Assembly: GCA_951406725.2 (NCBI GenBank)
Contig: OX597840.1
Span: 26,846,001-26,910,000 of the forward strand
Direction of reading: 5' to 3'
DNA: 64,000 nucleotides
Source of the DNA: Octopus vulgaris
Taxonomy: Eukaryota
Shown here: piece by piece, positions 14,847-62,290 of the stretch
Numbering within the stretch: position 1 is the first letter of the stretch
How the letters are laid out: each line of letters opens with the position of its first letter
Made by a program: the position numbers and the translations under genes
Notes under the pieces: model-generated
What the model saw: only the letters and a program-made list of their open reading frames with translations
Database searches by the model: none
Told to the model about the DNA's origin: nothing

Positions 14847-15446
14847 GGCGGCGAGCTGGCAGAAACGTTAGCACGCCGGGCGAAATGCGTAGCCGTATTT
14901 CGTCTGCCGTTACGTTCTGAGTTCAAATTCCTCCGAGGTTGACTTTGCCTTTCATCCTTTCGGGTGTCGATTAATTAAGTACCAGTTACGCACTGGGGTC
15001 GATATAATCGACTTAATCCCTTTGTCTGTCCTTGCTTGTCCCCTTTGTGTTTAGCCCCTTGTGGGTATTAAAGAAATAAGTATTTCATCTGCTGTTACGT
15101 TCTGAGTTCAAATTCCTCCGAGGTTGACTTTGCCTTTCATCCTTTCGAGGTCGATTAAAAAAGTACCAGTTACGCACTGGGGTCGATATAATCGACTTAA
15201 TCCCTTTGTCTGTCCTTGTTTGTCCCCTTTGTGTTTAGCCCCTTGTGGGTATTAAAGAAATAAGTATTTCGTCAACCGTTACGTTCTGAGTTCAAATTCC
15301 TCCGAGGTTGACTTTGCCTTTCATCCTTTCGGGGTCGATTAAATAAGTACCAGTTATGCACTGGGGTCGATATAATCGACTTAATCCCTTTGTCTGTCCT
15401 TGTTTGTCCCCTTTGTGTTTAGCCCCTTGTGGGTAGTAAAGAAATA
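14847..15446 (+). mobile_element. SINE family A, one head plus three tandem ~184-bp bodies
   Basis: Head ggcggcgagctggcagaaacgttagc. Units start at 14895, 15080 and 15264. B-box-like gagttcaaattcc. Probable TSD tattttt(t)gc on both sides. Confidence 0.9.
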
Positions 15447-22209: not shown

Positions 22210-22698
22210 GTGGAGGTACATGGCCTAGAGGTTAGAGCAGCGGTCGAGGGATCGCGGGTTCGAATCTCAGACCGGGCGATGAGTGTGTTTATGAGTGAAA
22301 CACATAAGCTCCACGCGGCTCCGGCAGAAGGTAATGGCGAACTTCTGCTGACGTTTTCGCCACAACTTTCTCTCACCCTTTCTTCCTCCTGCATCTTGCA
22401 GCTCACCTGCGACGGACCGGCGTCCCGTCCAGGGATCGCGGGTTCGAATCTCAGACCGGGCGATGTGTGTGTTTATGAGCGGAACTCCTAAGCTCTACGC
22501 GGCTCCGTCAGAAGGTAATGGCGAACTTCTACTGACTCTTTCGCCACAACTTTCTCTCACTCTTTCCTCCTGCATCTTGCAGCTCACCTGCGATGGACCG
22601 GCGTCCCATCGAAGTGGGGAACCTATACGCCAAGGAAACCGGGAAACTGGCCCTTATAAACCAGGCATAGCTTGAGAAGGAACAAGAAGAAGAAGAAG
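22210..22698 (+). mobile_element. tRNA-headed SINE (family D relative) with internal tandem duplication and (GAA)n tail
   Basis: tggcctagaggttagagc A box and gggttcgaatc B box. Body restarts at 22247 and 22431. Confidence 0.85.
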
Positions 22699-24679: not shown

Positions 24680-25782
24680 ATTCAAATTTTGGCACAAAGC
24701 AAAGTTCATATCTGTCCCGAAAGGACGAAAAGTAAAAGTCGACTTCGGCAGCTTTTGAACTCACCCTGTAAAGACAGATGATATGCCATTAAGTATTCTG
24801 CTCTGTGTGGTTGCGATTCTGACAGCTCGCCGTCTTAATATTTATTTATTTATTACCCACAGGGAGCTAAACATAGAGGGGACAGGCAAAGAGATAAAGT
24901 CGATTACATCGGCCCCAGTGCGTAACTGGTACCTATTTAACCAACCCAGAAAGGATGAAAGGCAAAGTCGACCTCGGCGGAATTTGAACTCAGAACGAAA
25001 AGACATACAAAATACCTATTTCTTTACTGCCCACAAGGGGCTAAACACAGAGAGGACAAACATGGACAGACAAAGAGATTAAATCGATAACATCGACCCC
25101 AGAGCGTAACTGGTACTTTAGTTAATCGACCCCGAAAGGATAAACGGCAAAGTCGAGCTCGGCAGAATTTGAACTCAGAACGTAACGGCAGACGAAATAC
25201 CATTAATCATTACGCCTGGCGTGCTAACGATGCTGCCAGCTCGCAGCCCTAAAATTTTTAGGGAGGTGGCCAGTCGATTAGATCGATCCTAGTACGCAAC
25301 TAGTACTTAATCTATCGAACCTCAAAGGATGAGAGGCAAAGTCGACCTCGGTGGAATTTGAACTCAGAACGAAAAGACATACGAAATACCCATTTCTTTA
25401 CTACCCACAAGGGGCTAAACACAGAGAGGACAAACAAGAACAGAGAAACGGATTAAGTCGATTATACCGACCCCAGTGCGTAACTGGTACTTAATTTATC
25501 GACCCCGAAAGAATGAAAAGCAAAGTCGACCTCGGCGGTATTCGAACTCAGAACGTAACTGCAGATGAAATACCTATTTCTATTTCTTTACTACCCACAA
25601 GGGGCTAAACATAGAGGGGACAAACAAGGACAGACAAAGGGATTAAGTCGATTATATCGACCCCAGTGCGTAACTGCTACTTATTTAATCGACCCCGAAA
25701 TTTGAACTCAGAACGTTGCGGCAGACGAAATACAGCTAAGCATTTCGCCCGGCGTGCTAACGTTTCTGCCAGCTCGCTGTCT
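24680..25782 (-). mobile_element. Cluster/array of SINE family A copies
   Basis: Repeated aaagtcgacctcggcggaatttgaactcagaacg and gaaatacctatttctttactacccacaaggggctaaac. Heads at ~25245 and ~25775. Confidence 0.9.
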
Positions 25783-33235: not shown

Positions 33236-33283
<48 letters not shown>

Positions 33284-33393
33284 ACGCTTCAATTCTATGC
33301 TGCTGCCGCATTATGTCGTACGCGAATGAGAGGATTTGCATCCCCAACCAAGAATTTCTGATGTAACACATGTCCTTGTGGAAGTTGTTGTGC

Positions 33394-33471
33394 GCGGCTG
33401 AAGAAGGCCACAGACATACATTATGCATTGTTATAAATCTGTCTAATAAAGGCCCGAAACATATGTACCGC
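33394..33471 (+). ncRNA. Hammerhead ribozyme-like motif with enlarged helix II
   Basis: GCGG-CUGAAGA-aGGCC[41 nt]GGCCc-GAAA-CAUAUG-UA-CCGC, with palindromic ACAUAUGU. Island 33282-33508 lies between (TA)n tracts. Confidence 0.75.
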
Positions 33472-33504
33472 TGAATCCTTGGCATCATGTTTTTATTTTG
33501 ATCA

Positions 33505-33555
<51 letters not shown>

Positions 33556-50157: not shown

Positions 50158-50300
50158 CCGTGTGTGTGTGTGTTTACTTAAATTCAGCTGAATATCGTAC
50201 TTATCCATAGAATTTCAAAGTAAGGTGATTAAAATCAAAATAAGGTATAATTATACTAATGTGTCCATCTATTCTAATTTAATTAAATTCTATGACTTTG

Positions 50301-50387
50301 TGCAGCTGAAGATTGCTCTACATTTTAAATTGATGTAATGATTGCATTGTTCAAATCAATGGAGTTGCATGAAACGATCGTACTGCA
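50301..50387 (+). ncRNA. Hammerhead ribozyme-like motif with enlarged helix II
   Basis: UGCAG-CUGAAGA-[58 nt: uUGC...GCAu]-GAAA-CGAUCG-UA-CUGCA: canonical core, palindromic ACGAUCGU. (TA)n follows 37 nt downstream. Confidence 0.8.
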
Positions 50388-50774
50388 TTACTTCTGGATA
50401 TCGTTGTTGCTTATTTTGATATATATACATACATACATAATACACACATACATACATACATACATACATACATACATACATACATACATACATACATACA
50501 TACATACATACATACATTATATATATACACAGGCACACATATATATACGTGGGCTTGTGATGTGTTTTATCTTTGTGTGTACACCCGCGCAGAAACACAC
50601 ACACACACACACACATACACATTGCTGTAGACATACATACACACACGTGTTTGCTGCTAATTCTTCCTAAACAGCTTTCAATACCATTCCATCCCTCAAA
50701 TACGTTTATCGTTTCTACAATCTACGAAATCCCAGCTAATCTGTAACTGATGTTTCTGTCTCCGCTTTTCATTA

Positions 50775-61590: not shown

Positions 61591-61903
61591 CGGCAAAGGC
61601 GACGAGCTGACAGAAACATTAGGACGCCGGGTGAAATGCTTAGCGGTATTTCGTCTGTCTTTACGTTCTGAGTTAAAATTCCACCGAGTTCGACTTTGCC
61701 TTTCGAGATCTATAAATATATATATTATTGCACTGCGGCTATTTTAGACGGCCGTAATACAATTATATCTTGCCATCCTTGTTACTTATTTGCTTTTGTT
61801 CACATACACATACATATGCACAATCTATATGTATATACATAGACACATACATACATATATATATATATATAATCAAAATAAGCAACAAGTATATCCGAGG
61901 TAG

Positions 61904-61991
61904 AGTGGTACAACTGTTTCATGCTACTTCATTTTATTAAACACTGTAAGTATTACATCAGTTTTAAAATGTCGAGCAATCTTCAGTCACT
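61904..61991 (-). ncRNA. Hammerhead ribozyme-like motif with enlarged helix II (homolog of 50301-50387)
   Basis: Minus strand: AGUGA-CUGAAGA-[59 nt: uUGCU...AGCAu]-GAAA-CAGUUG-UA-CCACU, followed by the tail ...ttgttgcttattttgat(ta)n shared with the 50.3-kb copy. Confidence 0.75.
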
Positions 61992-62136
61992 TATAGAAAT
62001 TTTCCAATCAAACGGACCATGCACATTCTTATCTCTATTTCGTTTGCCAACATTATAAAGTGGGTAGATATATAGACAGAGAGGTCGATTTCATTCCTAA
62101 GAACATGATAGTAGTAAATTTACTCTCTGACTGAGA

Positions 62137-62290
<154 letters not shown>

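Follow-up and report, generated by a model that had tools for sequence, protein, structure and literature searches.

The main question raised by this locus is what kind of element left a hammerhead motif with a helix II arm of 58 nt in the genome of Octopus vulgaris, and what such an arm might be for. In the window (the whole stretch of 64,000 nucleotides that was analyzed, from contig OX597840.1), the motif lies at 50301..50387 (+), where the original prediction had placed it: the catalytic core C3-A9, CUGAAGA, occupies 50306..50312 and is followed by the helix II domain (50313..50370), by GAAAC and GAUC, and then by GUA, the last base of which is 50382. The six pairs of helix I join 50300..50305 with 50383..50388, and the segment 50371..50382 embeds the GAAA core and the palindromic helix III (ACGAUCGU, self-duplex of -10.0 kcal/mol), with a predicted cut after A50382. 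The order of the conserved parts, CUGANGA/GAAA/UH, is that of a type I hammerhead. The core of the second copy was also located; it begins at 61986 on the minus strand (61986..61980) and is followed by a 59-nt helix II domain (61979..61921) containing AAUAAA at 61938..61933, with a predicted cut after 61909, the whole forming part of the 3' end of a second family, family B (61868..62142, -), the first copy belonging to family A. A third long-armed hammerhead, absent from the original prediction, was found at 33398..33467 (+); it has a 51-nt arm, is bordered on either side by (TA)n runs, and belongs to the 3' end of a third family, family F (33280..33509, +), the motif of which also adjoins an 842-aa Hydra-type open reading frame (ORF) in locus L102.

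It had been anticipated that standard searches would miss such a motif and, indeed, no Rfam hammerhead match was obtained at E<=10 on 50200..50420, nor at E<=1 in 10 further long-arm loci, which is likely due to the length limit of the model. The same search on the whole window gave 307 matches at E<=1, and all the 150 listed were microRNA models falling on microsatellites, below the gathering score; the mir-297, mir-3149 and mir-466 matches sit on the AT/AC microsatellites of the window, which also harbors SINE-like tandem arrays with 184-nt units (14895..15446, 22243..22607 and 24882..25700). A pattern of the A/B type was matched 1,812 times in the genome and never in the reversed control, so that the motif is not the product of chance. 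A general pattern gave 25,726 genome matches with a spacer of 38-68 nt (420 in the control) and 8,727 with a spacer of 8-37 nt (479 in the control). Of the type I hammerheads of this genome that match the pattern, about three quarters have a helix II domain beyond the length reach of Rfam, and the ribozyme counts of such genomes are therefore far too low.

The constraints acting on the motif were analyzed in an alignment of 17 hand-picked rows, which come from one clade and were aligned on sequence only. The core is invariant bar position 7 in all 17 rows, and helices I, II and III covary in a fold open at helix I: 16 of the 29 pairs change on both sides (5 out of 5 counted pairs in helix I) and 87% of the cells are paired, compared with 33-54% in slid controls. 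The covariation that the original prediction had seen between two copies holds for helix II in these rows; part of the difference between the two copies is instead due to decay of the 61986 (-) copy, the core-proximal helix I pair of which is A.C and the helix III of which is ACAGUUGU, most family B copies having a G-C pair and ACAAUUGU or ACGAUUGU, respectively. These data bear on the idea that the motif has ceased to be a ribozyme, the long arm marking the loss of catalysis and the core letters being kept for some other reason. In favor of it, the G10.1-C11.1 pair is absent from families A and B, which have U.U at these positions, the minimum free energy (MFE) folds pair the core and, in the case of the Poseidon element, no reads ended at the cleavage site (PMC11167929). 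However, the core is invariant while the surrounding helices covary; moreover, U.U is likewise found in Hydra hammerheads described as canonical (PMC8557442) and is the best-tolerated mispair at 10.1-11.1 (PMC3088659). Among the medoids of the 58 long-arm clusters of this genome (arm of at least 38 nt; chance matches likely account for a few of them), positions 10.1-11.1 are G-C in 12, G.U in 9 and U.U in 10. Such a loss of catalysis appears distinctly unlikely.

Concerning the parent element, intact ORFs, the longest of 1091 aa, were reached from a reverse transcriptase (RT) remnant adjoining one family A copy. ORFs of 976-1091 aa lie between same-strand hammerheads about 4.65-4.68 kb apart (L091, L093-L096) and, read by eye, contain the motifs RW(K/R), DKT and YRDD and a C-terminal CxCX5C linker, CxxC and CxH; RWK, RWR and RWA with DKT were found in three families, and DKT is also present in the family A remnant. 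The Hydra clade of Penelope-like elements (PLEs) was defined by Craig et al. by RWK, DKT, a C-terminal GIY-YIG-like domain, CxCX5C, CxxC and CxH (PMC8557442). In the octopus elements the C-terminal GIY-YIG-like domain was assigned by motif reading, with endonuclease (EN) homology in L103 and L106, and the Pfam profiles run on two RT pieces gave nothing useful. In L103, remnants of RT and EN are followed, in sense, by the family A 3' end, and in L106 the family B 3' end is placed in the same way after RT/EN. Other traits of Hydra-type insertion were also found, namely (TA)n targets, 5' truncation and inverted pieces. Judging from these sequence features, the long-armed motifs sit at the 3' ends of Hydra-clade PLEs. 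RT remnants occur upstream of other long-arm families in only 4 of 40 stretches, so most of these families are without an RT link. The unit of about 4.65 kb exceeds the length of less than 3 kb given for the clade, a general trait in that paper and not a diagnostic one, and the named NCBI protein matches are partial and all from Octopus. Two other origins were ruled out: a Naiad PLE, since the EN is C-terminal (Naiad has an N-terminal GIY-YIG) and DKT stands in place of DKA, and a non-LTR retrozyme, since what is dispersed in the genome are truncated copies of a coding element, and the site has no tandem unit.

The same genome contains young Hydra-type families (L091, 2360-7038 on the minus strand, and L092-L099) with Asn-rich ORF insertions and 3' UTRs of 1.2-1.5 kb or longer, as well as a compact Hydra-type family (L288-L317) that encodes 727 aa, has a helix II domain of 10 nt and is present in at least 63 near-intact copies. 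In L103, an insert of about 430 nt with inverted ends (1676-2105), resembling a small DNA transposon, is located just upstream of the family A hammerhead. Two octopus entries at NCBI, under the names "ankyrin-repeat protein" and "Ser/Thr kinase" (P0011, P0019), contain pieces 69-86% identical to the RT and are likely gene models that have taken in transposon sequence.

The window copy fits this picture as a 5'-truncated family A 3' end (50243..50420, +) that shares 95.5% identity with a longer family A copy and terminates in (AT)n/(ATAC)n; it is preceded by an inverted piece of the downstream tail of the element itself (50175..50244, -; blastn identity of 78% over 78 nt and 94% over 51 nt), in the tail-to-tail layout typical of PLE insertions (PMC8557442). 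The searches of the octopus genome returned 1334 (family A) and 2143 (family B) first-look candidates, 40 of which were scored for each family, and the full-length matches of the scored copies are 92-96% identical. Copies are 5'-truncated and have a microsatellite end 35-43 or 116-157 nt past the predicted cut, this end being missing in 3 of 51 scored copies; in two sets of 30 loci, inverted family sequence lies upstream of the copy in 9 and 5 cases.

As for the length of the arm, the claim that such a helix II is atypical is borne out, the arm being 2-5 times longer than in relatives. In metagenomes, the Hydra relatives gave 61 hammerheads in 51 of 77 loci, forming 33 clusters, and in all 33 the arm is of 10-29 nt; 26 of the 77 loci with a Hydra-type RT gave no hammerhead. 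The 77 loci were kept from 556 in a scan with a non-octopus alignment, and for this reason the set is biased away from long-arm relatives; a scan with an octopus-only alignment yielded 599 pattern matches with none confirmed, from which an absence of the lineage elsewhere does not follow. The description of the 58 nt as an insertion has to be revised: the length is right, and it is that of the whole helix II domain, which exceeds the relatives by about 35-45 nt. One metagenomic locus (L262) has the same UUGCUC..GCAU base with an arm of 18 nt, and another (L242) carries, at 2400, a Hydra-type hammerhead with a U3-A8 core variant. Within the octopus genome the arm length is continuous (10-73 nt), and arms of one stem type form graded series on shared basal stems (44 and 68 nt, for example), which fits a growth of the arm at its tip.

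In a quick RT tree built from 39 rows, of which 29 represent metagenome loci from the set of 77 and 10 come from the octopus genome, the eight long-arm rows are gathered on one side of a branch that has an SH-aLRT of 100; this tree has no outgroup and no named Hydra rows, and includes two long branches, one row only 38% filled, L101 labelled from its family member L102, and an L338 link that rests on the inverted layout. Among eight families, the identity of the arm is 0.60 (0.51 when shuffled), below the 0.65 of the downstream tail; an apical UGYAA/UURCA hairpin and a length of 57-60 nt are shared by families the upstream UTRs of which cannot be aligned.

Two explanations have to be weighed here. 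According to the first one, the arm would have no role of its own, having arisen by slippage and duplication in an AT-rich lineage with an expanded ORF and UTR, and selection would only keep it paired, thereby sparing the core. The continuity of lengths and the occurrence of Asn-rich insertions and long 3' UTRs in the same lineage are in agreement with this idea, as is an arm identity only modestly over background; on the other side stand the invariant positions of the arm and a hexamer (see below) that is kept across families with RTs about 65-81% identical. This explanation is possible, and we give it a real, though minority, share of the probability. According to the second one, the arm would be a recognition site for the RT/EN of the element or for a host protein, helping a weak ribozyme to fold or setting up the copying process, and the A-rich hexamer would belong to this site instead of being a poly(A) signal. 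The apical hairpin and the length kept across families with unalignable upstream UTRs, the position of the eight rows on one side of a supported branch, and the protein assistance of the Poseidon hammerhead (PMC11167929) all point in this direction, but the arm sequences of the other long-arm families are unrelated, and the RNA region needed in Poseidon was placed in the first 172 nt of the ORF (PMC11167929). A protein site of this kind seems to us unlikely.

The shape of the arm was predicted to be branched, with UUGC..GCAU at its base and an internal ACAU...AUGU hairpin. These letters are indeed present in both the window and the 61986 (-) copies, but the proposed hairpin (IIa) displays a two-sided change in none of its six pairs over the 17 rows, with 65% of the cells paired, and its partner (IIb) in two of nine, with 53% paired. 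The RNAalifold check on genomic copies gave a single rod, found independently, in which 10 of 21 pairs change on both sides (8/14 and 2/7 in two helices that are 80% and 92% paired). The latter, of seven pairs, is the apical hairpin of the rod (UGYAA-NNN-UURCA type; 50334..50346, +), where one pair appears as U-A, U.G and C-G. Since the rows are related and the rod was taken from their MFEs, its covariation is to be read as support and not as a significance test. The MFE is a single hairpin in 53 of the 58 medoids, and an unbranched rod in the 61986 (-) copy.

A helix II that is branched, or that switches between rod and branched forms, finds support in the MFE of the window copy, which is branched (folding z = -0.15 for that copy alone), and in the conservation of CA at two places and of UG at two, owing to which both registers keep two core pairs each. 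Nevertheless, with the basal pairs forced, the branched fraction reaches 0.94 in the window copy, the mean being 0.07 for family A (26 copies) and 0.02 for family B (33 copies), and just one other family A copy exceeds 0.5. On these fractions and on the covariation a branched helix II was rejected, and we regard the branched or switching arm as highly improbable. According to the folding, the branched form of the window copy is likely caused by two substitutions rare in family A, at 50355 and 50357, where the majority letter is found in 27 and 28 of 30 rows, a set including repeats of the window copy itself. The arm (in the window copy, U.U at 10.1-11.1 and then the rod) likely folds as one unbranched irregular rod of roughly 20-25 predicted pairs, with the apical loop about 20 pairs away from the core; in such a model, an internal loop of the rod may contact helix I.

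A remaining question concerns the hexamer. AAUAAA and AUUAAA are the two main poly(A) signals of animals, and the usual distance from the hexamer to the poly(A) is 10-30 nt. In 15 of the 17 rows one of them is carried by the 3' strand of the arm, at a distance of 22-26 nt upstream of the predicted cut, the exceptions being one GAUAAA and the window copy, where the AUUAAA site of the family (50354..50359, +) was lost through the changes at 50355 and 50357. In family F, AAUAAA lies 17 nt before the predicted cut. A U/GU-rich tract is found 20-40 nt past the cut. Of the 33 clusters of short-armed metagenome relatives (L211-L287), 14 have one of the two hexamers at the cut or immediately past it, where 3.1 would be expected, and among the post-cut hexamers AAUAAA is the commonest (9/32) and AUUAAA the third (5/32). 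The placement inside the arm in the octopus families, and after the cut in the short-armed relatives, would be new. Among the 58 long-arm clusters, which are related to one another, the hexamer occurs in 14 (6.6 expected), 12 of them belonging to the clade of the 17 rows. A strand bias was absent in the bin from -30 to -21 (8 sense and 6 antisense, 56 clusters). Two weak tests of a poly(A) role were negative: no poly(A)-tailed retrocopies were found (4 matches, with 12 in the control and 0 in the upstream control), and none of the loose ends listed for the contigs carries poly(A). That all long arms have a poly(A) signal is ruled out, the hexamer being clade-bound and without a sense/antisense difference. 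As the poly(A) signal of the element, the arm hexamer is a possible candidate, and it is also the best lead to the regulatory or protein-binding module imagined in the original prediction. Contigs from runs guessed to be RNA are unbroken across the motif and uninformative on cleavage. In L095 (3097-3171, depth <5), one contig has clustered A>G changes, three of them in AAUAAA, and another has clustered T>C changes; ADAR editing of transcripts of both strands may be responsible.

On the whole, the interpretation that we consider fairly probable is that the locus is a truncated 3' end of a Hydra-clade PLE with a type I motif and a 58-nt rod-like arm, that the hammerheads of intact elements cut slowly and in a regulated manner, as dimers or with the help of the element's protein, and that the arm is a tolerated extension, possibly carrying a poly(A) signal, and not a new catalytic part. 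Helix III (loop III) is palindromic in 49 of the 58 medoids, which makes this a dimer-type hammerhead; in agreement with this, intact elements combine a short palindromic helix III with two same-strand copies. The window copy has no matching partner, the 61986 copy being antisense and the 33398 copy having a different palindrome, and, solitary and without its hexamer, it is probably inert. Owing to U10.1.U11.1, a 2-bp helix III and the lack of a loop II near the core, a weak activity is predicted. One can imagine that the two hammerheads of an intact element pair through the palindromic helix III and cut after GUA, and that the arm arose through the lengthening, at its tip, of a short ancestral UUGC..GCAU hairpin and was kept paired, so that the core could still fold. 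The hexamer, 22-26 nt upstream of the cut, together with the U/GU-rich tract, might direct polyadenylation near the ribozyme site; cleavage and polyadenylation would each remove the downstream tail, where the genomic copies end (+35-43 and +116-157), and the cut or polyadenylated RNA would then serve as mRNA or be waste, the uncut RNA being the template for copying.

A bolder version assumes that the poly(A) signal moved into helix II, so that one hairpin would choose between polyadenylation at the ribozyme site, self-cleavage and read-through into a tail required for copying, the folding of the arm hiding the signal, that the coupling holds clade-wide in Hydra, the signal of short-armed members lying directly past the cut, and that the approximately 25,000 dispersed copies provide latent poly(A) and cleavage sites to transcripts of the host; we consider this rather doubtful. 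If the hexamer does work as a poly(A) signal, PLE hammerheads would gain a role in the choice between mRNA and template. The families provide natural arm-length variants on one core, and what PLE hammerheads do can be tested directly in the young intact elements, which have 980-aa ORFs and near-identical copies.

Full-text searches of the literature returned no description of the long-arm families or of the arm hexamer, and the known systems resemble them in different respects. The discontinuous CLEC2 hammerhead (PMC6765202) shares a large insertion and a coupling to a poly(A) signal, but it belongs to a mammalian mRNA, its insertion is of several hundred nt, and the signal is 3' of the cut, whereas the octopus hexamer is inside helix II and 5' of the cut. 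The Poseidon element PAc (Frangieh et al. 2024, PMC11167929) offers a mechanistic analogy, its hammerhead lying upstream of two element ends (tail) and of two reverse transcription starts that match copy ends; this hammerhead needs protein in order to cut, and insertion in vitro does not depend on the ribozyme. It belongs to a different clade and overlaps the ORF start, and the part of the paper considered here mentions no long helix II. A partial precedent is given by the two Selaginella PLE-X rows with loops of 28-34 nt; the PLE-X1 hammerheads share an enlarged helix II (9 bp and a 34-nt loop) marked as deviating (PMC8557442, File S2), but they come from a plant and from an endonuclease-less, rDNA-targeting, Chlamys-related element, with two cases and no rod covariation in that table.

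The minimal dimer-type PLE hammerheads of Cervera and de la Pena (2014, PMC4209133) are closer: a short palindromic helix III with predicted dimer cleavage, thousands of solitary copies, and a helix II 'larger than usual' are all shared, and it is by analogy with them that the palindromic helix III of the octopus motif should need a second hammerhead. Their helix II is of 6-8 bp with a conserved G10.1-C11.1, whereas in the octopus motif about 20-25 pairs are predicted, and families A and B have U.U at these positions. The closest system is represented by the Hydra-clade PLE hammerheads themselves (Craig et al. 2021, PMC8557442), which are type I, in sense and near the 3' end, and often have CUGANGA-U-UGC..GCA-U-GAAA and a palindromic helix III, in elements with (TA)n targets and the protein motifs DKT, RWK and CxCX5C. 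These elements are shorter than 3 kb, and those of octopus measure about 4.65 kb with Asn-rich insertions. In all 26 Hydra rows of File S2 stem II is of 3-7 bp with loops of 3-10 nt (7 bp and 8 nt in Hydra-1_oBim), whereas the octopus domains extend over 51-60 nt.
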